From IMG/VR virus record IMGVR_UViG_3300037507_002457, positions 4,235 through 68,234 of that record: a stretch of DNA of 64,000 nucleotides. One strand, given 5' to 3'. Below the pieces are notes generated by a model that was given only the letters and a program-made list of their open reading frames with translations, was not told the DNA's origin and searched no databases. The translations under genes and the position numbers were made by a program. Source of the DNA: a virus. The stretch's first letter is position 1, and each line of letters begins with the position of its first letter. Positions 2,333 through 63,092 of this stretch are shown piece after piece.

Positions 2333-2896
2333 ATGCATATACTCCTAAAAAATCTATTGAAAGAAGTAGAAGAAAAGTCTCCACTTAAATATCAAATGTA
2401 TGTGGATATGGACGGAGTTCTTGTAAACCTTGATAAAGGATTCAAGGCAGTTTCTGGCGGATTATCTCCTCAAGACTATGAAGCAAAAAATGGCAAAAAC
2501 ACTTTTTGGAAAGTAGTAAATAAAAATCCTAATTTCTGGCTTGACCTAGAACCATTGCCAGACGCTAAAGTTCTTTGGGATTATATAAAAGATAGATTCA
2601 AAGATCCACCCGCTGTTGTACTGAGTGCAGGCATCGGCACAAAAATAAAAGAGCAGAAAACTGCATGGATACGCAAGCATATAGACCCAAGTGTTCAAGT
2701 TATTATTGCTTCGTCCGGCGTATCAAAGCCACAATATATCATTGATAGAGCGGATGTCAGACTTACTCATATACTACTTGATGATACAGACAAGAATATA
2801 ACTGCTTGGGAAAATTCCGGTGAAAATAGAATTGCTATTTTACATAAAGATGCGGCGAGCAGCATAAATAAGATTAAACAGATTGTGTCTGTATGA
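2333..2896 (+). CDS. HAD-family 5'(3')-deoxyribonucleotidase-like phosphatase
   Basis: YVDMDGVLVN motif I, FWLDLEPLPDA, ILLDD motif, typical of phage NT5C-like HADs. Confidence 0.8.
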   Translation: MHILLKNLLKEVEEKSPLKYQMYVDMDGVLVNLDKGFKAVSGGLSPQDYEAKNGKNTFWKVVNKNPNFWLDLEPLPDAKVLWDYIKDRFKDPPAVVLSAGIGTKIKEQKTAWIRKHIDPSVQVIIASSGVSKPQYIIDRADVRLTHILLDDTDKNITAWENSGENRIAILHKDAASSINKIKQIVSV

Positions 2897-3141
2897 ATCA
2901 CGTTTCGCTAAAATCTTTGCTGCTAAAAGAACAATTTCATGTATCCGACATGGTTATGCTTGAAAAGGCGTGCAAGGCTTTTGCAGACGTATTAATAAAA
3001 AACAATATTGTAGCACATCAACATAAAGACCTTACAGCAGCAGATACTCCTATATCTCAGTATTCAGAAGATATAGCAGAAGTTGTTCGCAATGAAGTAA
3101 TCAAATGGATGGATGTAGCAAACAGACGAGGTGGAAGATGA
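2893..3141 (+). CDS. Hypothetical protein
   Basis: ATGA overlaps at both ends. N-terminal SLKSLLLKE leader motif. Confidence 0.7.
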   Translation: MNHVSLKSLLLKEQFHVSDMVMLEKACKAFADVLIKNNIVAHQHKDLTAADTPISQYSEDIAEVVRNEVIKWMDVANRRGGR

Positions 3142-4046
3142 ATTATCCTTTATACAACGACAAACTTGCTCCTATATGGAACATCAATGAAGATGGTGCG
3201 AGACTTGATGACGAAGTAAGAAAATCGCTCATCAAGATCGCGATGGATTTTGTGCAGGACTTAAAAAAGAACCAAGATATAAACATCAAGACAGAAGACA
3301 TACTTCTTATTGGTTCTATTACCAATTATAACTGGACGCCATATTCAGATATTGATCTACATATATCAACTGATTTTTCCAAACTTGATATGAGCAAAGA
3401 AGACGCACAGGCGATGTTTGATGCGATTAAAACTGGTTGGAATAGCAAGCACGACATTGTGATGAAAAACTTTGATGTTGAGTTATATGTTGAAGATATA
3501 GGGGCAGAACAGGTATCTGCATCAAAGTATAGTGTTCTACGAAACGAATGGATAAAAGAACCAAAGAAAGAAAGTCCAAACTTCAACAAGTCACTTATAA
3601 AAAAGAAGTATAAAGAGTACTCAAAGAAGATAGACGACTTGATGGATGCAGACAGCGAAAAGCCGCTAAAAGATTTACTTGACAAGATATACAAGTTTCG
3701 TCAAGCAGGATTAGACAAGGGCGGCGAACTAAGTGAAGAAAATATTGTATTTAAGATACTAAGAGCAAAAGGTAAGTTAGATAAACTAAAAGACACTATA
3801 TCGGCGATTTACGACGATAAGATGAGTGTCGATGAAATCGCCATGAACAATAGTTATTATGAGAAGGATGTTCAAGACGCGGCAGATGATATATATGCGA
3901 TTGCAAAAGCGTTAAAAGTATATCCAGATATTGAACCATATATCAAAAAGATATCATTAAAATACAAGAAGTATTCGGACGATGTGCATATAGACATCGC
4001 AAGGGCATTTTCAAAGCTTAGAAAACAACAAATAAAAACATCTTGA
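3138..4046 (+). CDS. Pol-beta superfamily nucleotidyltransferase
   Basis: LIGSITNYNWTPYSDIDLH (GS..DxD) plus DVELYVED. ATG at 3138 overlaps the upstream stop. Confidence 0.75.
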   Translation: MNYPLYNDKLAPIWNINEDGARLDDEVRKSLIKIAMDFVQDLKKNQDINIKTEDILLIGSITNYNWTPYSDIDLHISTDFSKLDMSKEDAQAMFDAIKTGWNSKHDIVMKNFDVELYVEDIGAEQVSASKYSVLRNEWIKEPKKESPNFNKSLIKKKYKEYSKKIDDLMDADSEKPLKDLLDKIYKFRQAGLDKGGELSEENIVFKILRAKGKLDKLKDTISAIYDDKMSVDEIAMNNSYYEKDVQDAADDIYAIAKALKVYPDIEPYIKKISLKYKKYSDDVHIDIARAFSKLRKQQIKTS

Positions 4047-4070
4047 CATAATATATCGGCGTGATAATAT
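4043..4070 (+). promoter_or_regulatory. Sigma70-like early promoter
   Basis: TTGACA-16 nt-TAATAT, with the ATG 7 nt downstream. Confidence 0.6.
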
Positions 4071-4076
4071 GTCGGT

Positions 4077-4766
4077 ATGCTAAAGAATATCAAGTTTGCC
4101 CGGTTTGGTGGGCTTAGTTCAGTCAATCAAAAGGGATATGATTCGAACTGTGATGGCTATCATTCTCCTCCCGCCAAGCGTGGCTTTTATGCGTTTCTTT
4201 GGCCGTATTATGAGTTCTTTCTTCTCAGCGGTGGATTATGGACAAACTATCCTTGGTCAATAGGCACCAAGTTCATTTACTTAAAAGACGCCAAGGGTAA
4301 TATCATTGACGAAAATCATCCTGATCATGAATACTTTTCCAGCACAGGAAAGTATTGGAGCATTCCCACCAAAGAATGGTATTTTCATCATAAGAAACAT
4401 CCTGAATATGAAGACCCCGAATATGATGCTAAGTTGGAGGCACATTGTATTGATTGGGAAACAAATCACGGAGATAAGCCCAAGTGGGTGTTGGCTCAAA
4501 AGCCTTCGCCCAGAATCTTTGAGTACAAAGGAAATATCTGGCATCATTTGACCTGCTATCTCGGACCTTCTGGTGCACTGAAGCAGAAAGGTGGTTGGAC
4601 TCTTTCGCCATTTGACGAATACGCAAAAGCATTACAAAAAAACATGCACGCTGGTCGCAGGACACAGTGCGAATACAATTCCAACAAAGGACTACCGAAG
4701 TCCAACAAAAATCCTTATGTGGGAATATCCAAAGATCATCTGGAAGTTTTTATTGAGAAGTTGTAG
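4077..4766 (+). CDS. Hypothetical protein
   Basis: 229 aa ORF behind a sigma70-like promoter. No family recognised. Confidence 0.75.
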   Translation: MLKNIKFARFGGLSSVNQKGYDSNCDGYHSPPAKRGFYAFLWPYYEFFLLSGGLWTNYPWSIGTKFIYLKDAKGNIIDENHPDHEYFSSTGKYWSIPTKEWYFHHKKHPEYEDPEYDAKLEAHCIDWETNHGDKPKWVLAQKPSPRIFEYKGNIWHHLTCYLGPSGALKQKGGWTLSPFDEYAKALQKNMHAGRRTQCEYNSNKGLPKSNKNPYVGISKDHLEVFIEKL

Positions 4767-6279
4767 AGCTTCTCCATATCCATTTTGTATGACCGCAATC
4801 CCATATACGGTCAAATCCGTTCAGTTTCATATTTTCCCATTCAGATAAGTTGGGATCAAATGTTTTTAACTTTTTTGCCAGTTTAGATTTTTGGAACATC
4901 TGTCGGTTGAATACTGTACTAAAGTCGGGAGATACATAATGATAACCTTGTGCTGTATTTCCTTCAAAGGTCATTCCTAGCTTAGAATACAAGTCTCCAG
5001 AGAACAATCTGCGGTCAGAGTAGCTTACTACGCTCTTTGGCTTATAATCCAATAGGAATATACTAAACAACTTTGTTGCTCCACCGTGCACACGAGTATT
5101 CAACGCATTGCAGAACCTTGATATTTCCCATTCAACTTTTCGGTCAAATCTACTTCTACAAAACGTCATTATGCTGACCAAGGAGTTTTTATAGTATAAG
5201 CCATATGCGACAGATGATTTGTCCTCACCTTGCATATGACACTTGTTCAAGAACTCATTCTTTTCTTTGGTGTCTACTTTTCGTATTTCGCATTCTCGTC
5301 CGTGGATCTTGGCAACGTGCCCGCCAACATACTGACGTATGATTGACTTTACAATATTCTGCTTATGCTTCCATTCGCTTTCAAGTATATGAATGAGGTG
5401 TATATTTTTCTCGGCACACTTCTCAGTCTTTTCCAGATGATAGTTTTTTGACATTCTGGGATGGCTGGCTCTGTGCCAATACAACCCGTTATATTCTATA
5501 GCGAACGAAAGATCGGGGATGTAAAAATCAAGCTCCTTGCCATCCAACACAACTCTATTATTTCGTAGTATAGTTTTACCCTTTACTTCAGACACCAAGA
5601 ACTCTTGCAAACCAGTTTCTGCGGTTTCTTTCTTTTCAGGATGGCATAGTTCACAGAACACATCTGTTGGCACATATACTGTAGACTCGAATCCATTATT
5701 ACATTTTTTACAATTAAACTTGTATCTATGCGAGAAATGATAGCCCGCATAGTCCTCTTGTTTGCATAACCACTTTACATTTTGCGAATTAAACAGAGTT
5801 TTTAGTTTTTCATAATGGTTCTCTTGTTTGAGTTTACTTCGTTTTTGTATAACATCTCTAGATTTGCCGGGATTGTCCACACCGTACTTTTCAATCCAAG
5901 TTTCCATTATCCGCTGTCTTACAGGACTTTTTGACGACAATACATTTTCTACACCATAGTTTTGTACATTGGTATATTTGGCTTTATCAAGTATAGCTTT
6001 TGATTGCAATGCGTGTTCTACACCATATTTGGTCATCATAGAGTTCTTGAAATTATTTACAACTTCAGAAGTCTTCATAGGATGATCCGTGCCGTACTTT
6101 TTTAGTGAGGTTTCTACCTGCGACGCTCGCATTTTTGCTAACACTTCTGGGTCTTTGTTAGAACAAGATTTACAGCAATACTTCTGCTTGTTTCGTTTCT
6201 GCCATTTCACTCTGAAATCTGTATTGCAAGTTTTACATTTTAGCTCTACAAAGTCTGGGTTTTTCTTGGGTCTGGCCAT
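4750..6279 (-). CDS. Putative homing endonuclease (KYG repeats, Zn ribbon, DUF559-like nuclease, C-terminal GNAT/Mom-like domain)
   Basis: KYGVEH/NYGVEN/KYGVDN repeats, ELDFYIPDLSFAIEYNGLYWH, WEISRFC..GGATKL..SYSDRR..RIWDCG. Oriented opposite to its neighbours. Confidence 0.75.
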   Translation of the reverse strand: MARPKKNPDFVELKCKTCNTDFRVKWQKRNKQKYCCKSCSNKDPEVLAKMRASQVETSLKKYGTDHPMKTSEVVNNFKNSMMTKYGVEHALQSKAILDKAKYTNVQNYGVENVLSSKSPVRQRIMETWIEKYGVDNPGKSRDVIQKRSKLKQENHYEKLKTLFNSQNVKWLCKQEDYAGYHFSHRYKFNCKKCNNGFESTVYVPTDVFCELCHPEKKETAETGLQEFLVSEVKGKTILRNNRVVLDGKELDFYIPDLSFAIEYNGLYWHRASHPRMSKNYHLEKTEKCAEKNIHLIHILESEWKHKQNIVKSIIRQYVGGHVAKIHGRECEIRKVDTKEKNEFLNKCHMQGEDKSSVAYGLYYKNSLVSIMTFCRSRFDRKVEWEISRFCNALNTRVHGGATKLFSIFLLDYKPKSVVSYSDRRLFSGDLYSKLGMTFEGNTAQGYHYVSPDFSTVFNRQMFQKSKLAKKLKTFDPNLSEWENMKLNGFDRIWDCGHTKWIWRSSTTSQ

Positions 6280-6408: not shown

Positions 6409-6897
6409 ATGGCAGAGCTACTAGATCAAAATCAAATATTCTTTACGGCCTTCGAGCCCAAGGTACAAAACCGTTTCATTATGAACATCGACGGCATTCC
6501 TGCATACCTAATCAAAGCTACAGGTCGTCCAAGCATACAGAACAATTCAATTACTCTAGATCATATCAATTTGAAACGTAAACTCAAAGGAAAGAGTGAA
6601 TGGCAAGATCTTTCTATTACATTATATGATCCAATCGTGCCATCTGGCGCACAGGCTGTGATGGAATGGGTTCGCCTTGCTCACGAATCTGTTACTGGTC
6701 GTAACGGATATGCTGATATGTACAAGAAGGATGTCCAGATTCAAGTTCTTGGTCCTGTTGGCGACATTGTTGAGAAGTGGGACTTGAAAGGTGCATTTCC
6801 TAGCTCGGTAAATTTCCAAAGCATGGACTGGGCAAATGCCGAAGCAATGACAATCGAAGTTACACTGACGATGGATTACTGCATCCTACAGTTCTAA
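6409..6897 (+). CDS. Tail tube protein (T4 gp19-like)
   Basis: FEPKVQNRF, WQDLSITLYDPI, QAVMEW, GPVGDIVEKWDLKGAFP. Lies downstream of the sheath. Confidence 0.9.
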   Translation: MAELLDQNQIFFTAFEPKVQNRFIMNIDGIPAYLIKATGRPSIQNNSITLDHINLKRKLKGKSEWQDLSITLYDPIVPSGAQAVMEWVRLAHESVTGRNGYADMYKKDVQIQVLGPVGDIVEKWDLKGAFPSSVNFQSMDWANAEAMTIEVTLTMDYCILQF

Positions 6898-6951: not shown

Positions 6952-7069
6952 ATTTTATCTTGACAAGTTTCTGTCTACCCCCTATAACCCCGGTTATCAC
7001 CTGAGTGAAACACAACTATATCATACTTTTTTATAGTATAGTTTATATTTATATATACCTAAAAAAATA

Positions 7070-7300
7070 ATGACTAAAGCAGAACTAAGAAAAATAATAG
7101 TTGAGGCTGTTAAAAAGGCAAAAGCCAAGAACACTCGCACTGCTGCGTCATATATAACTTCACCAACAGAAACTAATCCAACATTGTATATTAATATAAC
7201 TGTGTCTGGTTCTGATATGGATGAAACGGAAGATATGCGTGAAAAAATACTAAAAACGCTACAACAAGAGTTTAACATAAAACCAACTAAACAGGATTAA
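7070..7300 (+). CDS. Hypothetical protein with MTKAELRKIIVE leader
   Basis: Follows the TATTTATA motif and carries the shared leader peptide. Confidence 0.7.
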   Translation: MTKAELRKIIVEAVKKAKAKNTRTAASYITSPTETNPTLYINITVSGSDMDETEDMREKILKTLQQEFNIKPTKQD

Positions 7301-7304
7301 TATT

Positions 7305-7676
7305 ATGAATAAATCAGAACTTAAAAAAATTATACGTGAAGTAGTTGAAGAAGTCATGAAAGATGATTTTGCTCCACTTGGTGTAGCACAAGAATGGAGA
7401 CTAGATGAAAAAGCTCCACCGGATTTTCCAAAGAAACTTCACGACAAACTGCTGAAACAGTATAAGGACGATGAAGGTAAAGCATATGCTACTATGTGGA
7501 AGATTTTTTATGCCAAGAAAGATGGTAATAAAAAGATAAATGAAATGTGGAAAGTATTTGAAGGTAAAGATCACGATGAAACTGATATGAATAATCCAGA
7601 AGAAAAACGTGAAGTTGAACTGGCCAAGAAAGCAAAAGCTGCTGCCGAAGAAATCTTAAAAATGCACGGAAAATAA
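7305..7676 (+). CDS. Hypothetical protein with MNKSELKKIIREVVEE leader
   Basis: Tightly packed ORF with the shared leader peptide. Confidence 0.8.
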   Translation: MNKSELKKIIREVVEEVMKDDFAPLGVAQEWRLDEKAPPDFPKKLHDKLLKQYKDDEGKAYATMWKIFYAKKDGNKKINEMWKVFEGKDHDETDMNNPEEKREVELAKKAKAAAEEILKMHGK

Positions 7677-8239
7677 TGAATAAGTCTACACTCAAAGAAG
7701 TAATTCAAAATGTGGTTGCTCATAAACTGGCGGAAACCAACGGTGATGCGTCAAAGTATGGATATATTATTTCCGGAAAAGACACCAACGATCCGCACCT
7801 TCAGTTAATAGGTTATGGTAATATGCCAAAAAGTTATTGGCAAAAAAAACTTGACGGATACGCCGACGAGTTGAAGAAGAGAATTAAAGCCGAAGACTGG
7901 AATGCGGCGGTATACTTTATGAAGCAAAGTAGTGTATTCAATCTCGCAGTCAATATGATGAACGAAATATACGAAAAAGATCTTAATGAACTTGATACCA
8001 CACTCGATTCATCTGCTGCTGAAACTGGATTGACTGACGCGGATAAAAAAGAACTAGCGAATCTAAAAGCTCAGAGTGACAAACTAACTGCTAATATTAA
8101 AAAAATAGAAGGCGATGTAGCCAAGCTACAACAAACCATCCAGCCAAAAATGCAAAGAGCGGAGCGCATGAAAGCAAAGCTGCAAAAGCAGCAGTCTGAT
8201 AATATTCGCAAGCAACAGGCAATACAAGACAGAGCTTGA
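7676..8239 (+). CDS. Hypothetical protein, C-terminal coiled coil
   Basis: TAATG overlap, MNKSTLKEVIQ leader, heptad-rich C-terminus. Confidence 0.8.
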   Translation: MNKSTLKEVIQNVVAHKLAETNGDASKYGYIISGKDTNDPHLQLIGYGNMPKSYWQKKLDGYADELKKRIKAEDWNAAVYFMKQSSVFNLAVNMMNEIYEKDLNELDTTLDSSAAETGLTDADKKELANLKAQSDKLTANIKKIEGDVAKLQQTIQPKMQRAERMKAKLQKQQSDNIRKQQAIQDRA

Positions 8240-8245
8240 TGTATT

Positions 8246-10036
8246 ATGGATAACATTGAGAAACAGCTTATTGAACTTGAAGAAAATCTTCACAAATGGT
8301 TCAAGGAGAAATGGGTAAGATTCGGACCAGATGGTAAGATACGTGGTCAATGTGCCAGAGAAAAATCAAGCGAAGGTAAGCCAAAATGTCGTCCACTAAA
8401 GTCTGCACAAGCGATGGGAAAGAAAGGTAGAGCAACTGCTGCACGCAGAAAGAGACGTGAAGACCCAAATCCAGATCGTAGCGGCAAAGCAAAAAATGTA
8501 AAAACCGAGGCTGATAAGATGGATGAACTAAAGTGCTGGAAGGGATACTCACGAGTACGTGGTGTGCCTGCTGGTGCACCAGGTAGTTGTAAAAAGAAAA
8601 CAGAGGAATCTATAACAGAATCTTCCAATTTCTCTATTGAACAACTGGCAACCATTAGCGATCAAGCACTGGATCAAGCATATGGATATGGTCGCAGCAC
8701 GCCGGGTAATACTTTTGGTTGGCAGGCTAATATAATGTCTGCAATATATGCTAAAGAAGTAATTGATATGGGCGTTACTGATATTGAAAAAATTGCGAAT
8801 GCTATTCACAAAGGATGGAATGTTACAGCAAAAAAGTTTGTTGAAAATCCGGATCAATTTGATGATACTGAAAAACTACGCCAGTCTGGTAAACTGGATA
8901 GTAAGATACAACAAAGAAAAAAATTGATGAATATTGACTACAACCAACTAAGCGATGCCGAAAAAGAAAAGGATCGTGTTGTAGCTCGTGCTTTGTTGCA
9001 ATCGTTGAAAAAAGAATTGAGCGAATATATAACACCAGAAACCATACATAAACTTGCAGACGACTTAGGTATTGAGTGGGACAACGAGCCAAGCTTTCTT
9101 GAACTTACAAAAGAGTTGACGGGTAAAGAACACTTGGACGATTTAAATCAATCAGAGTTGATGAAAGTTAAAAACCATTTAGAAAAACAAAATATAGCAG
9201 AAACAGAGGAATTTACTATGGATAATGTAAATGAAAATCATATGTGCCCTATTTGTGGTGGAGAACTTGTGTCAGAACTATTGATGAACGAAAAGAAAGA
9301 TGCTTGTTATTATAAAGTTAAATCGCGCTATAAAGTGTGGCCAAGTGCATATGCTTCTGGTGCATTAGTAAAATGCCGTAAAAAAGGAGTAAAGAACTGG
9401 GGCAACAAATCAGAAGGCGTTGAAGAACTTGATGAAAAATGGAGCAAAAAATACAAGCGTAGCATTGATTGTAGTCATCCAAAAGGATTCAGTCAAAAAG
9501 CACATTGCCAAGGCAGAAAAAAGAACGAGGAAACCCTTATGAAAGAAGAACAACTGAAGAATATAATCAGAGAAATGGTAGAAGAGATGTATAACGAACA
9601 GAACCAGATGCAAGATGAATGTTGGGAATGTTATGAAGCTGCCATGGAAGAAGGTACCAACGAGGCTTATGAAGAATGCTATCGCAAGACCAACTGGGAA
9701 ATGGTTCCAGAAGGTGAAGAGCATACTTGCGAAGGCGATGAGTTTTATGAGATTTATGGAGATATTAACGCCGATGCTAAAGAAAACTTGACAGAAGCAG
9801 AATATCGTGGTCGCAAGGTAAAACTTGGAAAACCAATGAGGGGCGATGTAAAAAAGTTCAAAGTTTTTGTTCGTAATCCAACAACCGGTAAAGTAAAGAA
9901 GGTAAACTTCGGCGATAAAAAGATGCGTATCAAGAAGAGTAATCCAAAGAGAAGGAAAAGTTTTAGAGCACGTCATAATTGCGCTAATCCAGGACCACGT
10001 ACAAAAGCACGTTACTGGAGTTGCAGAAAGTGGTAA
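8246..10036 (+). CDS. Modular protein of short basic Cys/Trp-containing units (includes a RyR-repeat-like unit); putative internal head polyprotein
   Basis: Units include LHKWFKEKWV, CWKGY, IHKGW..YNQLSDAEKEKDR (RyR-like), KKDACYYKVK..WPSAYASG, KWSKKYKRSIDC, RRKSFRARHNC..YWSCRKW, separated by acidic linkers. Confidence 0.8.
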   Translation: MDNIEKQLIELEENLHKWFKEKWVRFGPDGKIRGQCAREKSSEGKPKCRPLKSAQAMGKKGRATAARRKRREDPNPDRSGKAKNVKTEADKMDELKCWKGYSRVRGVPAGAPGSCKKKTEESITESSNFSIEQLATISDQALDQAYGYGRSTPGNTFGWQANIMSAIYAKEVIDMGVTDIEKIANAIHKGWNVTAKKFVENPDQFDDTEKLRQSGKLDSKIQQRKKLMNIDYNQLSDAEKEKDRVVARALLQSLKKELSEYITPETIHKLADDLGIEWDNEPSFLELTKELTGKEHLDDLNQSELMKVKNHLEKQNIAETEEFTMDNVNENHMCPICGGELVSELLMNEKKDACYYKVKSRYKVWPSAYASGALVKCRKKGVKNWGNKSEGVEELDEKWSKKYKRSIDCSHPKGFSQKAHCQGRKKNEETLMKEEQLKNIIREMVEEMYNEQNQMQDECWECYEAAMEEGTNEAYEECYRKTNWEMVPEGEEHTCEGDEFYEIYGDINADAKENLTEAEYRGRKVKLGKPMRGDVKKFKVFVRNPTTGKVKKVNFGDKKMRIKKSNPKRRKSFRARHNCANPGPRTKARYWSCRKW

Positions 10037-10037
10037 T

Positions 10038-10994
10038 ATGGACAATTCACCAAAATATCTTTTTAAGATAGGTCAACTAGAAGCTAGTTTGACCGATCTT
10101 GCGTATGATGATATATTCTTGAAAGAACGTGATCCAAAAAAGAGAGAACAATATATCAAGAACATAATAGATGCATCAACAAAAGCGGCAGAAGATTATG
10201 CCAGAAGAATTAACCTCAAAGAAAACACTATGAAAAAATCAGAACTAAAAGAACTACTAAAAGTAATCGCAGAAGAAGTGATTGCTGTTAAAAAGTCAAA
10301 ACTAGATGAAACAAAAGGATTATCTGGTTTCAAGAAAGCAAAGGAGTCAACAGAGCATACCGAAAACGTAGCCGACTCAAAGTCGTTGACCACGACAGCA
10401 GAACCAAAAGAAAAGAAAGAAGGCAAAAAACTTCCTGTCGTTAAAAAGCCAGCTAACCCACAAAAAGTTGGTAGTCTAAAGGAAGAAATTCTTAAAATGA
10501 TACGCGAAGAGATCGATGAAATGGCTCGTGTAAAAGGCGCGGTTGGTAGTAAATTCAAGGTAGAAGATCCAAATTCTCCAACAGGTTGGGTTGTTAAAGG
10601 ACACAAGACAATACCAGATGGTACACCAACAGAGGCTCCAAAAGGACCATATCAGCCAAAAGGCATGACTGGAATGGGAAGACCAAAAGCATCCGCAGGA
10701 GACGAAGGAGGTGAAGAAGGCGAAGATATTTCTTCAGTATCATCGTCCGTTCCATCAAAAATTTCCGTTACATTCGACGGCGATGATGTGGGAGAAATTG
10801 ATATGAACAAAATAAAAGGACCACTTATGGCACACCTGAAAACTTTGTTGGGCGGAGAATTGTCTCTGTATAAAATAGATCCATCTCTACAAGCAAAGCT
10901 GGATGCATATAGCGATATGTATGTTGATGATAAGCTACCAGCAGGCGCAAAACTAACCCTGCAAGTAGTAGGAGACACCGTAAAAGCAGTATAA
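10038..10994 (+). CDS. Hypothetical protein with internal KKSELKELLK..EE motifs
   Basis: 318 aa ORF in the operon, followed by a terminator. Confidence 0.8.
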   Translation: MDNSPKYLFKIGQLEASLTDLAYDDIFLKERDPKKREQYIKNIIDASTKAAEDYARRINLKENTMKKSELKELLKVIAEEVIAVKKSKLDETKGLSGFKKAKESTEHTENVADSKSLTTTAEPKEKKEGKKLPVVKKPANPQKVGSLKEEILKMIREEIDEMARVKGAVGSKFKVEDPNSPTGWVVKGHKTIPDGTPTEAPKGPYQPKGMTGMGRPKASAGDEGGEEGEDISSVSSSVPSKISVTFDGDDVGEIDMNKIKGPLMAHLKTLLGGELSLYKIDPSLQAKLDAYSDMYVDDKLPAGAKLTLQVVGDTVKAV

Positions 10995-15528: not shown

Positions 15529-15540
15529 TATTTATAACTT

Positions 15541-22080: not shown

Positions 22081-22126
22081 TATTTATAATAAGCGTATAT
22101 CTCATATATACGAATATTTATATATC

Positions 22127-35106: not shown

Positions 35107-35406
35107 ATGAATAAGACCAAAAAGAATATGCCCACCGACACCAAGACGTTTATCGACCAGTCTGCTGACATCAAGCCCAGCAAGCTATATATGAAGGATA
35201 TCAAGTGGAAGTATCTTGTTCGCAGTGCTCTGCGTGGCAAGAATATTCTTATTGTTGGTCCAACAGGACATGGGAAAACCTTCGCGGTCCAATGCTTGGT
35301 TGAAGCCCTTTCTGAAACTATTGAAGAAGAGGTTACGGAAGAACGCCTTAACGAACTCAAGGCTACAGAAAATATCACTATTATAAAAACAGAAGAACTA
35401 AAATAA
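35107..35406 (+). CDS. MoxR/CbbQ-like AAA+ ATPase, N-terminal fragment
   Basis: KNILIVGPTGHGKT Walker A, then a stop after an acidic tail. Confidence 0.85.
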   Translation: MNKTKKNMPTDTKTFIDQSADIKPSKLYMKDIKWKYLVRSALRGKNILIVGPTGHGKTFAVQCLVEALSETIEEEVTEERLNELKATENITIIKTEELK

Positions 35407-35445
35407 TGGCGTGGAATATTCTACTGACTTATATTTATATATGTC

Positions 35446-53520: not shown

Positions 53521-54513
53521 ATGAATATATTTGAATCTACTTTCGAAAAGCATAAAAAGTTGGTATTGGAAGCGACCGAACAGCAGTCCGACTCAAAAAG
53601 TGATACTCAACAAGATTCTAAAAATTTGGATCAAAAATTTAAAGCGGAATTTTGGAATGACTTTAAAGAAATATCGGTATCTCAGTTTGTTCAAAAATAC
53701 AATACCTTGGTCGCTGACCCAAAGGTACATGCGTTTATTACTTCTGGAACAAAAGAAAAAGACAATGACGATGTAGAAAATTTTACGGTGAAGAGAGCAT
53801 CGGGTGTGGTTGGTAAATTAATACCGTCCCAAACTGAAATAGGATTTGGAAATAGTTTAGATGATATTATTGGAACCGGTAAATTTGGAACTACCGCCGA
53901 TCTTAATCAAATACTTACTGGCCAAAATGTACTGCTTTCTACAAAGAATGGAGAAGTACCACTAATAACTTATGCGGGAAAATATATAATAGACGGCCAC
54001 CATAGATGGAGTAAAATTTGCTGCGCAAATCCAAACGCAACTGTGGTATGTTTGGATTTTAATAATAAAGCAATCGGAGACAATCCAGAAATGGCATTGA
54101 AGGCGTTTCATCTAGCAATCGCAGCCGAATTGAAAGGAATGCCAACGGAGAAGCCGGTGGGACAAAATTTGATGAAAAGTTCCGAAGAAGCTGTTCGTGA
54201 ATATGTAAATAGCAATTTAAAGCCAGAATTTCTTGAAGTATATAATCGATATAAAGATCAAATTTACAGGGGAGTTGATAAATTGCAGAACGACAATGTC
54301 GCGCAATATTTAGCGAGAAATGCAAAGGCAACAATTATAGAGCGAAATCCGGCAACGGATACTCCAAGAATAAATATGCCACAGGTCGATCAAGCACGTT
54401 CTACTCAAAAATCTTTAGAAACGGGAATAGTAAATTTTTCTCCAGATAAGGTAACAGAAACCTCTCTGTTTGAATCTACTTTCAATAAGTTCAAAAACTT
54501 GTATACCAAATAA
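53521..54513 (+). CDS. ParB/Srx-like domain protein
   Basis: LIPSQTEI, YIIDGHHRW. TATTTATA upstream and an FESTFEKHKKLVLE leader. Confidence 0.7.
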   Translation: MNIFESTFEKHKKLVLEATEQQSDSKSDTQQDSKNLDQKFKAEFWNDFKEISVSQFVQKYNTLVADPKVHAFITSGTKEKDNDDVENFTVKRASGVVGKLIPSQTEIGFGNSLDDIIGTGKFGTTADLNQILTGQNVLLSTKNGEVPLITYAGKYIIDGHHRWSKICCANPNATVVCLDFNNKAIGDNPEMALKAFHLAIAAELKGMPTEKPVGQNLMKSSEEAVREYVNSNLKPEFLEVYNRYKDQIYRGVDKLQNDNVAQYLARNAKATIIERNPATDTPRINMPQVDQARSTQKSLETGIVNFSPDKVTETSLFESTFNKFKNLYTK

Positions 54514-55023: not shown

Positions 55024-56601
55024 TTATGTTTTATAGTTTAAAATCCAATCAAGAACTTTCTTGAGTGTTTCTGCTCTGTTTGCTCCATCGATTGATTGTA
55101 TCGGCTTCTTTTTGGATATTTTCAGATTGTATATATCCGCCTTATTGTCGCTTACCATACCAACTTTGATTTTGGTATAATCAATCGTAGAGCCCTTGTC
55201 TTTCTTTGCTTTGGCGATTTTTGGTGGCAGAAAATATACCTTTTCATATCTTTCTGCGTTTTCTATTGTATCAACAACCTGTTGTGGATTGGTGAACTTG
55301 AATCTTGGTCCAGATGAAAGTATCTTGATCGTGTTCATCACCGAGTTGATGTTTGGATCTATTGCCATAACTGTGCTGGCAGCATCTCTGGCATATTCCA
55401 TAACATCTTCAAACTTAGCGAACTTGGCAGCAGGTTCATCATATCTTTCACGTATATTTACCCAAGCAAGTGCCTGTAGTTGATATGATGTAAGACCAAT
55501 CTTTTGTGCTTCTTCGTGTAGTATCTTTACCAGGTTCTGACGTATATAATCATCGCCAAACAGCTTCATTACTATTTTGTTTACGATGGCATTTTTCTTT
55601 TTTTCCAATGATTTCTTTTTCTTGGCAAGCATTTCTTCTTCCGGCGAAAGCTTTGGCTTTTTTGGTTTCTTTGGCTTTGCTTCATCGACCTTTTCTTCTT
55701 CATCTTCATCGTCTGGGATATGAGCAATCCAATCTGTGATGTCATTTTCAACCATGTTCTTCAATGGTTCATCAAAGAATACACGTATCATCCAGCGGTC
55801 AATGGTCGCAGGGTCAATCTTGCCTGCCCATTTTTTGCCAGGAAATATAAGATTGATAAGAAATGAATTGATTTTTGTTCCGCTAATGGTAAATGTGCCC
55901 GATTCAAGGTCGTTGTATAGTTCTTCTTTTGATACATTTCCATTATGCTGTAGATAATACTTTACATATGTATTGAAGTTTGGAATCTTGGCGTTTGACA
56001 CGGTAACTTCACTAAAGATGTCATCTTGACCTTTCTTTGGCCCCTTTTCAATCTTCTTGCCAGTATAGTCTTTCTTTGGAAGAAGTAGATTGGCATATGC
56101 ACTGTTTGGATATTTTGCCAGAAATGCCAGATCCTTGTCTTTTAGGTTACTCTTTACATTGGCGGCAATATCTGAAAGTGCCTGCTTACCTTCTTCACTA
56201 CCAAAATCTTTTTTTACTGCGGTGTATAGTTTAGCGGCCTCAAGAATGTTTTGGTCAAGTGCGGTGTTGGCAGAACAATAGCCGCACGCCGCCAAGAACA
56301 AACAACCATCACTTTCTCCCATACTTTCAAACACAAGCTTATTGAAGTTATCATACCAGTAGGCATATGTATCAAGCTTGGTTTTCATTTCACCAGGAGC
56401 CTGCAAGTATTGGTCAACTTCACGCTTTAGATTATTCATGGTAATCTTTATAGGAATACTTACTTCTACTTTCTTATTATCAACAATAAAGTCTATCTTT
56501 ACTGGGAATGTATCCTGTGTTCTGAACGAAGGACTTACAAGCTGGTCATAAAATCCTTTGCCGCTAAGTGCTTCTTGTAATAGAGAAAGTAGTGAAATCA
56601 T
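55024..56601 (-). CDS. Hypothetical protein, possible HhH-type DNA-modifying/glycosylase-like fold
   Basis: WYD..SANT..N, TKINSFLINL, ATIDRWMIR, LQALAW. MISLLSLLQE leader, with TATTTAT upstream on the minus strand. Confidence 0.6.
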   Translation of the reverse strand: MISLLSLLQEALSGKGFYDQLVSPSFRTQDTFPVKIDFIVDNKKVEVSIPIKITMNNLKREVDQYLQAPGEMKTKLDTYAYWYDNFNKLVFESMGESDGCLFLAACGYCSANTALDQNILEAAKLYTAVKKDFGSEEGKQALSDIAANVKSNLKDKDLAFLAKYPNSAYANLLLPKKDYTGKKIEKGPKKGQDDIFSEVTVSNAKIPNFNTYVKYYLQHNGNVSKEELYNDLESGTFTISGTKINSFLINLIFPGKKWAGKIDPATIDRWMIRVFFDEPLKNMVENDITDWIAHIPDDEDEEEKVDEAKPKKPKKPKLSPEEEMLAKKKKSLEKKKNAIVNKIVMKLFGDDYIRQNLVKILHEEAQKIGLTSYQLQALAWVNIRERYDEPAAKFAKFEDVMEYARDAASTVMAIDPNINSVMNTIKILSSGPRFKFTNPQQVVDTIENAERYEKVYFLPPKIAKAKKDKGSTIDYTKIKVGMVSDNKADIYNLKISKKKPIQSIDGANRAETLKKVLDWILNYKT

Positions 56602-56682
56602 ATATGCTTGATTATAATAAATATATATCAAGGGCTAAAAACATATTGACAAAAGGTTATTATAGTGTATGGTAATAGCATT

Positions 56683-60140: not shown

Positions 60141-60147
60141 AATTTTT

Positions 60148-60223
60148 GCGGTAGTAGCTCAGTTGGTAGAGCGCAATCCTTCCAAGCTTGATGTCGCAGG
60201 TTCGAGCCCTGTCTACCGCACCA
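60148..60223 (+). tRNA. tRNA-Gly(TCC)
   Basis: GCGGTAG/CTACCGC acceptor, loop CTTCCAA, GGTTCGAG, encoded CCA. Confidence 0.9.
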
Positions 60224-60230
60224 AATTTAT

Positions 60231-60308
60231 GTATGTGTGTGCCCGAAATAGATAGGGCGGTCTCTGCAAAAGACATTTATGCTGGTGCAATTCCAGTCAC
60301 ATACTCCA
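60231..60308 (+). tRNA. tRNA-Cys(GCA)
   Basis: GTATGTG/CACATAC acceptor, U73, loop CTGCAAA, CCA. Confidence 0.8.
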
Positions 60309-60310
60309 AT

Positions 60311-60445
60311 ATGAAAAATAAAATCAAATTGCCAACGCTAGAAGGTAGATTAAAAAACAAGATAAGAACCAGAAAAGAAGCAGTCAAACAACTTCAAGAT
60401 GCTGGAATGGAATTGACCCCATTGGCCAAAAAGTATCTTAAATAA
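60311..60445 (+). CDS. Small basic hypothetical protein (44 aa)
   Basis: MKNKIKLPTLEGRLK.., lying between tRNAs. Confidence 0.5.
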   Translation: MKNKIKLPTLEGRLKNKIRTRKEAVKQLQDAGMELTPLAKKYLK

Positions 60446-60452
60446 AATTTAC

Positions 60453-60534
60453 AGAGAGTAAAGGGTACAGCCATTGGAATATCGCAATGGGTTCATGTAG
60501 CGTAATAAGCACTCTTGACCAAACACTCTCTACA
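60453..60534 (+). ncRNA. Candidate small structured RNA B
   Basis: AGAGAGT/ACTCTCT closing stem, AAGGGT/ACTCTT, CCATTG/CAATGG. tRNA-sized but not a cloverleaf. Confidence 0.45.
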
Positions 60535-60540
60535 ATTTAT

Positions 60541-60616
60541 TGTCCCATAGCTCAGTTGGCAGAGCAAGAAATTGTTAATTTCAAGGTCGCACGTTCGAAC
60601 CGTGCTGGGACAGCCA
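60541..60616 (+). tRNA. tRNA-Asn(GTT)
   Basis: TGTCCCA/TGGGACA, loop TTGTTAA, GTTCGAAC, G73-CCA. Confidence 0.9.
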
Positions 60617-60623
60617 TTTTTAT

Positions 60624-60701
60624 GGGGATTGTGATGTAATTAGATTAGCATAACAGATTGTGAATCTGTGTGAGACGGAGCATAACCGTCCATTCCCACC
60701 A
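60624..60701 (+). tRNA. tRNA-His(GTG)
   Basis: ACAGA-TTGTGAA-TCTGT, possible encoded G-1, atypical T loop, CCA. Confidence 0.8.
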
Positions 60702-60707
60702 TTTTAT

Positions 60708-60782
60708 GGATCATAAGCATAAGAAGTGATGCTCTAGGCTCTTAACCTTGAGAACACGGGGCAGTACCGTGATGATCCACCA
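60708..60782 (+). tRNA. tRNA-Lys(CTT)
   Basis: GGATCAT/ATGATCC, loop CTCTTAA, CCA. Confidence 0.85.
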
Positions 60783-60788
60783 TTTAAT

Positions 60789-60862
60789 ACGGACGTGGTA
60801 TATTAGTAGTGCCTCGGTCTCCAAAACCGATGACGAGAGTGCGATTCTCTCCGTCCGTGCCA
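60789..60862 (+). tRNA. tRNA-Trp(CCA)
   Basis: ACGGACG/CGTCCGT, TCGGT-CTCCAAA-ACCGA, G73-CCA. Confidence 0.85.
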
Positions 60863-60870
60863 TATTTATT

Positions 60871-61100
60871 TTACCAGTAAGACGCAGAGTCTTAGCGGTC
60901 GTAGCATACACATCAGCAATCTTGTGGGTCGTTTCTGCAAGACCGAGTGACAGGTACGACGCCCGATAAGCCGGACATTATTCGCTAAACGTGAGCCAAG
61001 GCAAAAGAAGCGGGTAATGTTCCAAGAACAGAGTGCACGATATGTTCGGGCCATAACGGAGAAAAATAGTGTATGGTGGGTGAGAGCCCCACACTGGTAA
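60871..61100 (+). ncRNA. Candidate ~230-nt ncRNA C with tRNA-like ends
   Basis: TTACCAGT/ACTGGTAA closing stem preceded by a T-arm-like hairpin GTGGG-TGAGAG-CCCAC, plus several internal helices. Confidence 0.65.
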
Positions 61101-61108
61101 TTCATTTA

Positions 61109-61186
61109 TGGGGTGGGAGCTTATGAAGCACAAGCGATAGATTGTCAATCTATAGATAGTCGGTGCAAATCCGATGCACCCCGCCA
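61109..61186 (+). tRNA. tRNA-Asp(GTC)
   Basis: GGGGTG/CACCCC, ATAGA-TTGTCAA-TCTAT, G73-CCA. Confidence 0.85.
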
Positions 61187-61196
61187 AAATTTTAAT

Positions 61197-61283
61197 GGTG
61201 TCGTCGCATAGTGGCAATTGCAGGAGACTGTAAATTTCCCGACCTAACGGTCTACATTGGTTCGAGTCCAATCGGCACCACCA
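61197..61283 (+). tRNA. tRNA-Tyr(GTA)
   Basis: Loop CTGTAAA, long variable arm, GGTTCGAGTCC, CCA. Confidence 0.9.
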
Positions 61284-61366
61284 ACTTCATATGAAGAAGC
61301 CACCAGCCTGATCCGCTGTCCTACCAACCGTGGCGATCTCCTATGGTAGTGAAGGGACCAATTTAT

Positions 61367-61441
61367 GGGAGTATAGTGTAATGTATAACACGCAACGCTA
61401 CGGACGTTGTAATCTAGGTTAAATTCCTAGTACTCCTACCA
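61367..61441 (+). tRNA. tRNA-Arg(ACG)
   Basis: GGGAGTA/TACTCCT, CAACG-CTACGGA-CGTTG, CCA. Confidence 0.88.
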
Positions 61442-61445
61442 ATTT

Positions 61446-61521
61446 GGCCCCATAGAATAATGGTTGAGTTCGCCGCTCTTTCAAAGCGGAGAGGTGGGAT
61501 CGTGACCCACTGGGGCTACCA
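61446..61521 (+). tRNA. tRNA-Glu(TTC)
   Basis: GGCCCCA/TGGGGCT, CCGCT-CTTTCAA-AGCGG, CCA. Confidence 0.88.
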
Positions 61522-61530
61522 GTTTATTAT

Positions 61531-61604
61531 TGTTCCTTGGTGTAATGGTAGCACAAGCGACTTTGACTCGCTTTGTCATGGTTCGAATCCATGAGGAACA
61601 GCCA
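61531..61604 (+). tRNA. tRNA-Gln(TTG)
   Basis: TGTTCCT/AGGAACA, AGCGA-CTTTGAC-TCGCT, GGTTCGAATCC, CCA. Confidence 0.92.
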
Positions 61605-61618
61605 CTATATATATTCAT

Positions 61619-61801
61619 ATGATAATAATACGCAGAGCAGTAGATAAACATAGAGCATACACGGTTATATTCCTAAAAGGTGAACCGCCTAAATGGATAC
61701 CAACCAGTGATTATGAGCATCAACGTATACTTGAAATATACAAGCAAGATAAGCGATATGAAGGTATACTCAATGATTTTACTGATCTTGATCTAAACTA
61801 G
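61619..61801 (+). CDS. Small hypothetical protein
   Basis: 60 aa ORF after tRNA-Gln. Confidence 0.55.
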   Translation: MIIIRRAVDKHRAYTVIFLKGEPPKWIPTSDYEHQRILEIYKQDKRYEGILNDFTDLDLN

Positions 61802-62551
61802 TCCAACGAATCTCAATAGTGATTCGTAAAATGAATTTGGTATAGGATGATTTTTATATACATTCAATGTCGCATTCGACCAGTGTATTGCCAATAAATC
61901 CTTCGGAAATTCGAAAGGTCCAAAAAATGGGCCAGTTTTTTTACATCCAAGGTCCAAATAATGTTTTTGATGCAAAAAACATTCTCGACATTTCTTTGTG
62001 GTTATATTTGTTCTGTTTACCAGTATGTCCATACACAAATTCATAGAACAATCCCAATGTAGATATGGCATTGTTAAATAATTTATTTTCATGGATAATT
62101 CTTTGTATGCTTCAATCGCAAATGAAGAACCTTTTGGACATTTCATCAAGAAAGTGCTTAATGTTTTTCTTGCATCCAAAATATCAACAAATAGATATTC
62201 TGGGTTATAATTAATTGGTGCCAAATAAGCTACATCCAATTGGGAATATATTCCACCTTCCATAGCAAGAAGCTTACATTGAAACTGATCAGACCAATGA
62301 CTTAATGAACCTATACCCCCGTTTGGAATATATGGTAAATATTCTCCTTGAAATGAGAAAATTGAACTTTTGGGCATTATATCCGCCGCGTCTCGTAAGA
62401 TTGTTTTGTCTGGTACATTTTTTATTTTGTCATAACACCAAAGATGTACTTCGTGACCGTGTAGCTGCAATAATTTTATTGTGAGTTGTTCCATTAAGCT
62501 TAAACTGTCACCAACCCACACCGTGTGTACTATAACATTTTCTTTATTCAT
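61793..62551 (-). CDS. Glycosyltransferase (GT32 / DXD-like)
   Basis: HTVWVG..LSLMEQL..GHEVHLWCY, DAADI, SDQF..LL..GGIYSQLDV, IHWSN. Confidence 0.75.
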   Translation of the reverse strand: MNKENVIVHTVWVGDSLSLMEQLTIKLLQLHGHEVHLWCYDKIKNVPDKTILRDAADIMPKSSIFSFQGEYLPYIPNGGIGSLSHWSDQFQCKLLAMEGGIYSQLDVAYLAPINYNPEYLFVDILDARKTLSTFLMKCPKGSSFAIEAYKELSMKINYLTMPYLHWDCSMNLCMDILVNRTNITTKKCRECFLHQKHYLDLGCKKTGPFFGPFEFPKDLLAIHWSNATLNVYKNHPIPNSFYESLLRFVGLV

Positions 62552-62584
62552 ATTTCATATATATGAATTATAAATAGTTTTTAT

Positions 62585-62659
62585 GGTAGAGTAGCTCAAA
62601 GGAAGAGCAGTCTGTTGATAACGGACAGGTTGTGGTGTCAGGATCCACCTCTACCACCA
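62585..62659 (+). tRNA. tRNA-Ile(GAT)
   Basis: GGTAGAG/CTCTACC, loop TTGATAA, irregular T arm, CCA. Confidence 0.78.
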
Positions 62660-62660
62660 T

Positions 62661-63092
62661 TTAACTTGGGTCATATCCAAACTCGTGAATACTATTAGCG
62701 TCTGTATATAGATGCTTTGCTGGCACAACTTTGGTTATTATTTTATAATCTCCACCAAGTGTTCTTTCGCCGTGAGTAACTGCATATTGCTTATTGATAG
62801 TCACCCAATCACTCGCATTTATATCTCCTTGTATATTTGAAGGAACTGCACGATATATCTTTACTTTAGCGTCTGGTTTATCTTTGGTATTATGCATTAT
62901 GCTAATAGACAACTGGTCACTATAATCTGTTGCTCTATCGCCATAATATGCTACTGCTTTATTTGAGTATATGTCATCTGGATATATCTGCGTAAGGTCG
63001 TGTAAAGGAGAGCCGTTTGATTTACTTGGAGCTTTATGCGTTCCTTTATAATCATTTTCTAATATTTTTTTAGCTAGTAGATATAGTTTCAC
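62661..63092 (-). CDS. Hypothetical protein, possible ADP-ribosyltransferase-like fold
   Basis: VKIYRAVP..DWVT..YAVTHG..EFGY resembles an R..S/T..E ART core (inference). LLAKKILE leader and TATTTATA upstream on the minus strand. Confidence 0.6.
   Translation of the reverse strand: MKLYLLAKKILENDYKGTHKAPSKSNGSPLHDLTQIYPDDIYSNKAVAYYGDRATDYSDQLSISIMHNTKDKPDAKVKIYRAVPSNIQGDINASDWVTINKQYAVTHGERTLGGDYKIITKVVPAKHLYTDANSIHEFGYDPS

Follow-up and report, generated by a model that had tools for sequence, protein, structure and literature searches.

Why do phage proteins with unrelated bodies begin with similar short helices that close on a glutamate? We examined this question in a 64-kb stretch of DNA from a distant T4-like myovirus, hereafter the window (64,000 nucleotides; bases 4235–68234 of the 68,234-base contig IMGVR_UViG_3300037507_002457), for which a sequence-only reading had proposed one family of Glu-terminated leaders that send enzymes into the capsid. 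The leaders fall into at least three tag classes, which we call A, B and D. These tags are real, specific to N-termini with some internal and C-terminal copies, attached to unrelated bodies and conserved at the protein level. They close on a conserved Glu, accompany operons with a candidate late motif, cluster beside the prohead protease gene and occur in protease-carrying phages. By analogy with the capsid targeting sequence (CTS) of T4 internal proteins (IPs), the short amphipathic helices would be propeptides that target proteins to the prohead core and are released by cleavage after the closing Glu, a reading to which we give a probability of roughly 0.55. Late timing, core binding, cleavage, virion retention and injection are what we infer from these patterns.

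Three classes of tag on unrelated proteins

Class A is a 16-residue unit, M-K-K-S-E-L-K-x-L-I-R-E-V-V-x-E, present in six copies in five adjacent genes at 7070–10994 (Table 1). We built a position matrix from these copies and scored it without the Met column. The six founding copies reached 28–38 bits, a circular result as the matrix was made from them; apart from 33874 and the clamp (both below), no other N-terminus of the window, including those of 2333, 2893, 22127, 53521, 56601− and 63092− (genes are named by start, the minus sign marking the minus strand), scored higher than the best 1% of internal windows. Because the matrix splits the six copies from everything else, the list in the sequence-only reading is heterogeneous. 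Every N-terminus and internal copy that it quoted is present in the sequence (that of 63092− through a GTG start, that of 56601− through an internal ATG), and its single family resolves into at least three tag classes plus four unsupported cases. The copy in the 8246 protein is internal in relatives as well, and several relatives have a gene start at the Met of the first copy in the 10038 protein. A weaker class A-like leader, at 33874, scored 9.1 bits, a score met by 0.05% of 18,458 internal windows, and is retained in the orthologue of G001, a complete 297-kb relative.

We then asked how widely the unit occurs. In 128 related IMG/VR loci (1,626,052 six-frame residues), the matrix gave 325 matches at ≥12 bits, compared with 46 in the reversed sequences. 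Among 203 distinct contexts, 111 followed a Met, and in 87 this was the first Met of the open reading frame (ORF). The leader starts 173 of 1,893 greedy-called ORFs, which fall into 29 body families (BLAST 1e-4). A scan of IMG/VR with the exact pattern M-K-K-S-E-[L/F]-K-x-[L/F]-I returned at least 119 viral stretches, for which we estimate a chance expectation well under one. The 80 stretches analysed held 78 distinct contexts, 71 of them at the first in-frame ATG, and 72 complete ORFs, mostly of 70–250 residues and belonging to 42 body families. At the nucleotide level, Leu6 of the window copies is coded by CTA, CTT, CTC and CTG, and only 38 of 81 identical residues use the same codon. This variation of an invariant Leu through the CTN codons, together with the few shared codons, indicates that class A is under protein-level selection.

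To avoid circularity in locating the end of the unit, contexts were picked on motif positions 1–9 only (84 distinct) and the later columns were then read. Position 11 was E in 61%, position 12 V/I in 67%, position 13 V/I/L in 87% and position 15 E in 64%; before the closing Glu, P3 was V in 45%, I in 36% and L in 6%, with E at P1 in 64%. Information fell from 2.42 to 1.10 bits past the closing Glu and was ≤1.0 thereafter, which sets the unit at 16 residues with a closing [I/V/L]-x-E. Some helices in the 80 IMG/VR stretches run one turn longer; in this sample position 17 is L/I/V in 70% and position 19 is E in 49%.

The family of the 7305 protein comprises 99 clusters of homologues, and the leader is kept in an alignment of 22; tblastn of the 7305 protein against isolated phages gave no match. 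Its structure model has a helix at residues 3–20 followed by a low-confidence linker, a weak hint of helix plus linker given the low mean predicted local distance difference test score (pLDDT, 59.6). The C-terminal tail of the family (HDETDMxNPEEKREVELAKKAKxAAxEILKMHGK) is also highly conserved, and relatives have differing, unrelated domains inserted between the N-terminal part and this tail.

Other N-termini were evaluated by comparing each one in the window with 1,763 N-termini of relatives, removing partners with homologous bodies and repeating the comparison on 20 shuffles. The class A leaders had the most partners with non-homologous bodies (7305: 145, shuffle mean 7.8, maximum 40; 7070: 97, mean 2.1, maximum 21; 7676: 75, maximum 9), followed by 2333 (37, maximum 17) and 62661− (19, maximum 10). 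The 33874 leader had 36, below its shuffle maximum of 48. An N-terminus at 23524, absent from the earlier list, also stood out (Table 1). Two more N-termini beat their shuffles, 28556 (26 partners, maximum 5) and 59161 (10, maximum 1); we dropped both as leaders since their partners are mostly portal, terminase and other N-termini that form no single tag.

Class B, M-I-K-L-K-D-L-L-x-E, spans 10–11 residues and is represented by genes 2333 and 2893, the latter a near-match. The partners of 2333 are head-module N-termini: MIRLKDLLKEEEE... and MNVLKLRNLIEG... shortly downstream of the protease gene, and MSIIKLKDLLKE... beside the capsid gene. The pattern [ILV]xL[KR][DNS][LI][LI]xE occurred 46 times at N-termini, twice internally and once in reversed sequence (617,546 residues), on seven body families that include the HAD family of 2333. 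In G001, a genome outside the pattern design, class B precedes an RNase_T exonuclease (48.5 bits) and a NUDIX protein (35.7 bits), and in other relatives tags also precede GP88 and amidoligase domains.

Class D, F-E-S-T-F-E-K-H-K-K-L-V-L-E, is about 17 residues long; 34583 and 53521 share an identical 11-mer. It occurs on three body families, the third being a 256-residue FMN_red-like protein (23.5 bits, slightly below the 24-bit cut-off), and is also carried by a protein with a NucS Pfam label. The 53521 family (141 homologues) has class D at both the N- and the C-terminus in its close members; longer forms have an additional domain, which the second copy separates from the core. The x-T-E ahead of the C-terminal copy is mostly K-V-T-E. 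In the AlphaFold model of 53521 (mean pLDDT 85.7), a confident core at about residues 38–305 (above 90) is flanked by a helix at 3–22 (about 51–57), a linker at 21–32 (<50) and a helix at 310–329 (about 49–53). Such a tag–site–cargo–site–tag layout would fit the precedent of T4 Alt; alternatively, the two terminal helices may pack on each other.

Thus, of the leaders listed by the sequence-only reading, those of 7070, 7305, 7676, 2333, 34583 and 53521 stood, as did the internal copies, with 2893 a near-match and 33874 weaker. The remaining ones did not. The N-terminus of 22127 passes the helix descriptor defined below and had no partner among the 1,763, with no other family sharing the tag; that of 56601− likewise had no partner, and the late motif is absent upstream. 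That of 63092− resembles a head-module protein's only with a one-residue gap, and a 'class C' (AKKIL-type) built on it was rejected as a shared tag, having one body family plus this gapped match to the window protein. The clamp at 50968 (MNKSELNKFI), offered as a partial counter-example, shares only the first half of class A; it has no closing Glu, its upstream region is sigma70-like, and its 2.8 bits are met by 0.34% of internal windows. These four N-termini are indistinguishable from chance.

Candidate late motif, prohead protease and cargo

We next examined the expression context of the tagged genes. The motif TATTTATA occurs 20 times in the window against 7.2 expected, a count reached in none of 100 shuffles, and its intergenic copies precede the tape measure gene, baseplate genes and most leader-containing operons. 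Four relatives have an extended form, ATATTTATA, before the portal gene, the leader–protease operon, the scaffold operon and a neck/baseplate gene. Judged from this placement, ATATTTATA/TATTTATA is presumably a late promoter. TATTTATA is the reverse complement of T4's late TATAAATA; passages of PMC3037559 give the late motif as TATAAAT. It stands just 3–27 bases from start codons, and several copies end only 3–5 bases before the start (2321–2328, 15529–15536, 22115–22122 and 63096–63103 in the window; 10650 in L068 and 11463 in L054, two relatives described below). With a spacing of 3–5 bases, either late mRNAs would have no leader or almost none, or the motif would also act in starting translation. 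Upstream of the exact class A pattern, TATTTATA lies within 70 bases in 24 of the 78 contexts.

To relate leaders to the motif we used a sequence-blind descriptor (helical moment ≥0.55, [LIVM]xE ending at residues 9–20, no P/G) and assigned operon membership by a simple 60-base chaining rule. The descriptor flagged 7 of 62 N-termini in the window and 54 of 3,158 internal windows (binomial p 9e-5). All seven lie in TATTTATA operons (7/35 vs 0/27, Fisher p 0.014). Applied unchanged to G001, it flagged 17 of 383 N-termini and 203 of 14,203 internal windows (p 5e-5), and positives were again concentrated in motif operons (12/83 vs 5/300 elsewhere, p 1.3e-5). The link between leaders and the late motif that the sequence-only reading had wanted checked therefore held in the window and was replicated in a second genome.

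A Peptidase_S77 gene (T4 gp21-type) is present in two of the five records with 7305 homologues, G001 and G002. Its setting is clearest in L068 and L054, close relatives whose protease is 98% identical to that of G002. Their gene order is large terminase, portal, a 292-residue protein, leader-A genes (MKDAKQLIRELVEEVIEE..., MTRKQLKQLIRETIEEVME...), a 179-residue protein, the protease, a 244-residue acidic protein, a 154-residue class B-like protein, a 456-residue scaffold-like protein and the major capsid protein; the equivalent stretch of T4 holds genes 20, 67, 68, 21, 22 and 23. Across 80 protease-centred loci, 60 of 73 leader-A genes lie ≤2 kb upstream of the protease, and the leader-A share of plus-strand genes is 38% and 17% in two upstream bins compared with 0–6% elsewhere. 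Among the 73 loci with enough upstream sequence, 37 have at least one leader-A gene there. The 20 longest records with the exact class A pattern include a protease in 11, among them all six that are ≥46% complete and both of those ≥90% complete; the nine records without one are only 15–38% complete. G002 (96.7 kb; L047–L052), in which the ribonucleotide reductase, portal and capsid genes are broken into short ORFs, was left out of gene-level counts because its assembly is apparently indel-rich.

Leader genes are also present in the head modules of two isolated phages, Flavobacterium phage vB_FspM_immuto and Microcystis phage Mel-JY01. Gene immuto35A_198 begins MKKSQIVKAVQEVLEE, and one small gene (leader, then ...EEMTGTGAVAGY...) is conserved as far as both. 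In a PHROG scan of 12 head-module proteins, 8 matched no family; the remaining four comprised the protease and the capsid protein, a protein of unknown function and a single marginal match. In the capsid proteins of L068, Mel-JY01 and immuto, a shared ...Q-[LI]-[IV]-x-E with A as the next residue stands directly ahead of the conserved mature part and is likely the maturation site. BLAST does not place the T4 gp23 cleavage site on the clade's capsid protein (the alignment begins at residue 67 vs 84), so a capsid cut after ...LIDE is suggested by conservation among the three relatives. The Mel-JY01 head module also has an annotated ribosomal protein S21 (RpsU) gene between the protease and scaffold genes (L133 6188–6415).

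The cargo behind the tags is varied, and the names proposed for it in the sequence-only reading fared unevenly. The HAD/5'-nucleotidase of 2333 held (phrog_2643, 1.5e-20, residues 20–184, starting beyond the tag). A ParB/Srx-like identity for 53521 is weak: IIDGHHRWS is invariant in 25 homologues, and the best Foldseek matches of the core are ParB N-domains (E 4.3e-3, probability 0.91, TM about 0.2); Pfam found no ParB domain in this protein. The nuclease-like and ART-like proteins are Atlas look-alikes below 0.8 and thus leads only (22127, restriction-endonuclease-like, 0.78; 62661−, ART-like, 0.76), and no glycosylase was found. PDB sequence searches with 53521, 62661− and 22127 gave nothing meaningful, and a Pfam search of seven cargo proteins at E ≤5 gave nothing over the cut-off.

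Genomic setting

The contig is linear according to IMG/VR and about 30% complete according to CheckV. We assigned the window to the T4-like phages from PHROG and Pfam scans of its 64 ORFs. Besides the tail genes of Table 1, these found replication genes (gp32-like, UvsX-like, DnaB-like, ribonucleotide reductase, PolB at 48406–50922 and clamp loader), rIIA/rIIB, an RNA ligase and several homing endonucleases. Mel-JY01 is among the nearest isolates (PolB 41% identity), and the major capsid protein of a close relative is 57% identical to that of Mel-JY01, 56% to that of immuto and 37% to that of Rhodothermus phage RM378. Megablast of 25 kb against isolated phages gave no match.

Table 1. Positions of leaders, late-motif copies and surrounding genes in the window
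Feature	Coordinates	Strand	Gene or protein	Remarks
Class B leader MHILLKNLLKE	2333–2365	+	2333–2896	before HAD/5'-nucleotidase-like domain
Class B-like leader MNHVSLKSLLLKE	2893–2931	+	82 residues	one residue over the strict pattern, so does not fit
Class A leader MTKAELRKIIVEAVKK	7070–7117	+	7070–7300, 76 residues	28.2 bits; I-V-E ends at residue 12
Class A leader MNKSELKKIIREVVEE	7305–7352	+	7305–7676, 123 residues	37.9 bits
Class A leader variant MNKSTLKEVIQNVVAHKLAE	7676–7735	+	7676–8239, 187 residues	31.5 bits; L-A-E ends at residue 20
Internal class A copy MKEEQLKNIIREMVEE	9539–9586	+	8246–10036, 596 residues	residues 432–447; 36.2 bits
Internal class A copy 1 MKKSELKELLKVIAEE	10230–10277	+	10038–10994, 318 residues	residues 65–80; 29.5 bits
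Internal class A copy 2 LKEEILKMIREEIDEM	10476–10523	+	10038–10994	residues 147–162; 31.1 bits
Class A-like leader MNRELLKKAIKKLVLQE	33874–33924	+	235 residues	weaker case
Class D motif ...DTFEKHKKLVLE	34583–34642	+	143 residues	residues 9–20
Class D leader MNIFESTFEKHKKLVLE	53521–53571	+	53521–54513, 330 residues, ParB/Srx-like
C-terminal class D copy ...VTE-TSLFESTFNKFKNLYTK	54448–54510	+	53521–54513	conserved x-T-E before the copy
Leader-like N-terminus MKNEIEKLIE	23524–23553	+	292 residues	40 partners with non-homologous bodies, shuffle maximum 4
Helix-like N-terminus MEKSKIIEYVLNE	22127–22165	+	466 residues	passes descriptor
N-terminus MKLYLLAKKILE	63057–63092	−	143 residues, phrog_2579	GTG start; weak
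N-terminus MISLLSLLQE	56572–56601	−	internal ATG of TTG ORF 55024–56631	unsupported as leader
TATTTATA, candidate late-promoter motif	7046–7053	+		before the 7070–10994 operon
Other intergenic TATTTATA	1510, 1516, 2321, 12186, 15529, 22081, 22115, 33845, 35432, 42714, 52621, 53489	+
Other intergenic TATTTATA	62569, 63096	−
Tail sheath gene	53–1420			PHROG/Pfam scan
Tail tube gene (gp19-like)	6409–6897	+		left border of class A gene array
Baseplate hub gene (T4_baseplate)	11112–11948	+		right border of class A gene array
Tape measure gene	12214–15528			PHROG/Pfam scan
tRNA cluster, nine genes	60148–61604, 63176–63251			ARAGORN
Two further tRNAs	61110; window end, 63939–64000			Rfam

The interval between the tail tube and hub genes holds two to six genes in 26 loci, the window included, nearly all of them with a class A start. 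Its content varies, and in Mel-JY01 the hub gene directly follows the tube gene, which marks the array as an accessory insert open to change. In L005, L008, L013, L016, L030, L032 and L036 it ends with a lipoprotein-like gene (MKKL...LLLTGC...), and the window has no such gene. Class A genes occupy at least six places in G001. At one of these, three genes of 76, 95 and 101 residues stand in tandem, their tags nearly identical and their bodies unrelated, an arrangement resembling the polymorphic IP loci of T-even phages.

Within the array, the 596-residue protein 8246–10036 is built of short Cys/Lys/Arg-rich modules (KWVRFGPDG..C, CWKGY.., WPSAYASGALVKCRKKG, ..RHNC..YWSCRKW). These recur, shuffled, in 390 isolated phage records, mostly of cyanophages and also of Pelagibacter, Roseobacter and Flavobacterium phages (≤42% query coverage), and in some relatives modules of this type stand immediately behind a class A tag. 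They are shared by T4-GC119 of T4-like cyanophages, in which we saw no class A tag. T4-GC119 carries the label 'structural protein' in Synechococcus phages S-E7 and S-P4; we set this label aside as evidence since it could not be traced to data, and the main text of PMC3037559, in the passages used, calls it a hypothetical protein.

Several neighbouring features lie outside the tag system. A 455-residue ORF that ends the baseplate block (20713–22080) has a weak match to a family A DNA polymerase palm (phrog_17, 2e-17; Pfam DNA_pol_A, 33.1 bits, slightly below the 34.3-bit cut-off), and a family B polymerase is also encoded. An AAA+ (MoxR/AAA_5-like) gene at 35107–36787 is apparently split by a homing endonuclease into a 99-residue P-loop part (35107–35406) and a 268-residue AAA_5 part (35981–36787). 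The GIY-YIG/NUMOD3 endonuclease gene between them (35446–36051) has its own TATTTATA at 35432, and an Rfam scan reported no intron. Three further homing-endonuclease-like genes (phrog_3339/559) lie at 1520–2320, 4750–6279 (−) and 27634–28572; two of them break up the sheath-to-tube stretch, where some relatives have a 568-residue ORF.

Competing explanations and known tag systems

Under the propeptide reading, tagged genes would be expressed late from ATATTTATA-type promoters, the helix would confer affinity for the assembling prohead core, and a gp21-type prohead protease would cut after the closing Glu of [I/V/L]-x-E. Cargo would then be freed inside the head, while core proteins would instead be broken up; internal and C-terminal copies would mark extra processing or targeting points. 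The S77 protease in relatives, the I/V/L-x-E end, the adjacency to the protease, the variable cargo and the shared late motif fit the T4-like packaging tags that the sequence-only reading envisaged, with the list of leaders itself heterogeneous. That the cargo is kept in the head and injected is more doubtful than targeting and cleavage, and the small proteins beside the protease may simply be core parts. We advance only tentatively the wider proposal that three or more classes of interchangeable address tag, in some cases one at each end of a protein, bring dozens of unrelated proteins into the head for co-injection, among them a HAD 5'-nucleotidase, a Nudix hydrolase, a DEDD exonuclease and ParB/Srx-like and NucS-like proteins.

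A number of observations weigh against the propeptide reading. The 68-kb contig has no capsid, portal, scaffold or prohead protease gene at its ~30% completeness, and the protease of the window's own phage is thus deduced from relatives. The largest class A array lies in the tail module and not in the head module, and three of the six strict class A copies in the window are internal, unlike T4 IP tags. Val occupies P3 in 45% of class A contexts, where the T4 motif has L/I, and [LIV]-x-E is in any case to be expected often in amphipathic helices with a high content of K, E, L and I. The large terminase, not a head-internal protein, is one of the 29 body families matched by the class A matrix, which therefore has some false positives. 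The class B–D patterns and descriptor thresholds were set after examples had been seen, and the co-occurrence of tag and protease may reflect shared T4-like ancestry. We know of no precedent for packaging housekeeping-type enzymes (HAD, Nudix), and our search of open-access papers and bioRxiv found no virion proteomics, N-terminal sequencing or expression data for the clade.

These points leave room for other explanations. Look-alike N-termini rich in K, N, I, L and E could arise from A/T-rich codons after the start, through composition or translation-start bias and chance; many genes, early ones among them, start with MNK or MKK, as the clamp illustrates. For the whole set this is quite improbable, as the ordered motifs far exceed composition-preserving shuffles and reversed sequences, Leu6 is kept via all four CTN codons and the exact 10-residue pattern recurs so widely. 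Chance is refuted for classes A, B and D; it is the likely source of the four loose cases, which did no better than chance in our tests. The position of the array between tube and hub genes in 26 loci invites the idea that the helices send their proteins into the tail tube or the baseplate. We consider this highly improbable, given that the same tag occurs in the portal–protease operon and in at least four other places of a complete genome, and we know of no tail-targeting propeptide system. Nor does a position after the tube gene imply a tail function, because the T4 tube gene directly precedes the portal gene and genes 67, 68 and 21.

Two further explanations accept the tags and dispute their purpose. 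The tagged proteins may themselves be parts of the prohead core or scaffold, like T4 gp67, gp68 and gp22, that are degraded and expelled, in which case nothing is delivered to the host and the payload idea is wrong. Small genes at the gp67/gp68 position, the small gene conserved to immuto and Mel-JY01, and the cutting of T4 core proteins into several fragments (in passages of PMC9026906), which would fit the internal copies, make this possible. We doubt it as a general account, since the many cargo families are mostly singletons with complete enzyme domains, unlike scaffold, and the tube–hub array is dispensable, being absent from Mel-JY01. It is also conceivable, if unlikely, that the helices are an interaction or oligomerisation module shared by late proteins, uncut and unrelated to capsid entry; as coiled-coil handles they might, for instance, gather proteins at one shared partner, be it a chaperone or a membrane assembly site, or bind one another. 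A heptad-like stripe is indeed formed by hydrophobic positions 5, 8/9, 12/13 and 16, copies occur inside proteins and at C-termini, and the helix often continues in the IMG/VR sample. Such a module leaves unexplained why conservation ends sharply at a Glu with I/V/L at P3 and why the tags concentrate beside the prohead protease gene, and the low-confidence, linker-separated end helices on the folded 53521 core suit a detachable tag better.

Phage proteins injected besides DNA are known for a few laboratory models only. If the propeptide reading is true, the packaged and injected proteins of many uncultured aquatic T4-like phages could be listed from genomes, the arms-race logic of T-even internal proteins would extend to enzyme payloads, and the 16-residue tag would be a ready-made packaging handle, testable in culturable relatives (immuto, Mel-JY01). 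Should the helices serve another purpose than addressing, one would still have to explain a helix that is very widespread, strictly N-terminal and linked to late genes.

Finally, we compared the tags with known systems. The class A genes occupy the position of T4 genes 67/68, and the N-termini in the T4 record are similar in style to the tags: gp24 MAKINELLRE, gp67 MEGLIE, gp22 MLKEQLIAE and gp21 MNEPQLLIE. By eye only, that of gp24 is like class B, M-I-K-L-K-D-L-L-K-E. Most proteins of the neighbouring head module here have no PHROG family, which sets them apart from the T4 head proteins with propeptides (gp24, gp67, gp68, gp22 and gp21). We take the T4 IP tag to be 10 residues long, against 16 in class A, and in the sequence that we assume for it see no evident similarity; gp24 presumably loses its first 10 residues. 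Passages of PMC9026906 mention gp24*, with the cleavage site shown in a figure.

These passages also state that gp21 cuts after L/I-X-E and that IP propeptides of 10–19 residues direct proteins to the core and are then removed. They also describe the loss of 7–65 N-terminal residues from T4 virion proteins, processing of Alt at both ends and CTS-like tags on varied proteins of T4 relatives (PMC9026906); T-even internal proteins have only the CTS in common, as a passage of PMC3012670 puts it. Like the CTS of IPI, IPII and IPIII (passages of PMC9026906, PMC3012670), the tags here are short, N-terminal, Glu-ended after hydrophobic-x and placed on unrelated, fast-evolving cargo, and relatives of the window phage encode a gp21-type protease, as do the phages with the T4 CTS. 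Their lengths (A 16, B 10–11, D about 17) are within the T4-type range (7–19, and 65 in the capsid protein), domain matches on tagged cargo begin behind the tag as with T4-type propeptides, and class D at both ends of the 53521 family parallels the two propeptides of Alt (as described in PMC9026906 passages). Unlike the T4 CTS, there are at least three tag classes in one phage, internal copies and whole housekeeping-type enzyme domains as cargo, the largest array follows the tail tube gene, and the function proposed here is a prediction from sequence. Our search of the same literature found no description of such tags outside the T-even and giant-phage models. In the giant phages phiKZ, 201phi2-1 and SPN3US, with gp175/gp245-type proteases, a very short motif marks the cut after Glu in many head and ejection proteins, whose propeptide regions contain several redundant sites (passages of PMC9026906). 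That system differs from the tags described here in its S/A-X-E motif, its long propeptides, the lack of a single portable tag and its separate lineage.

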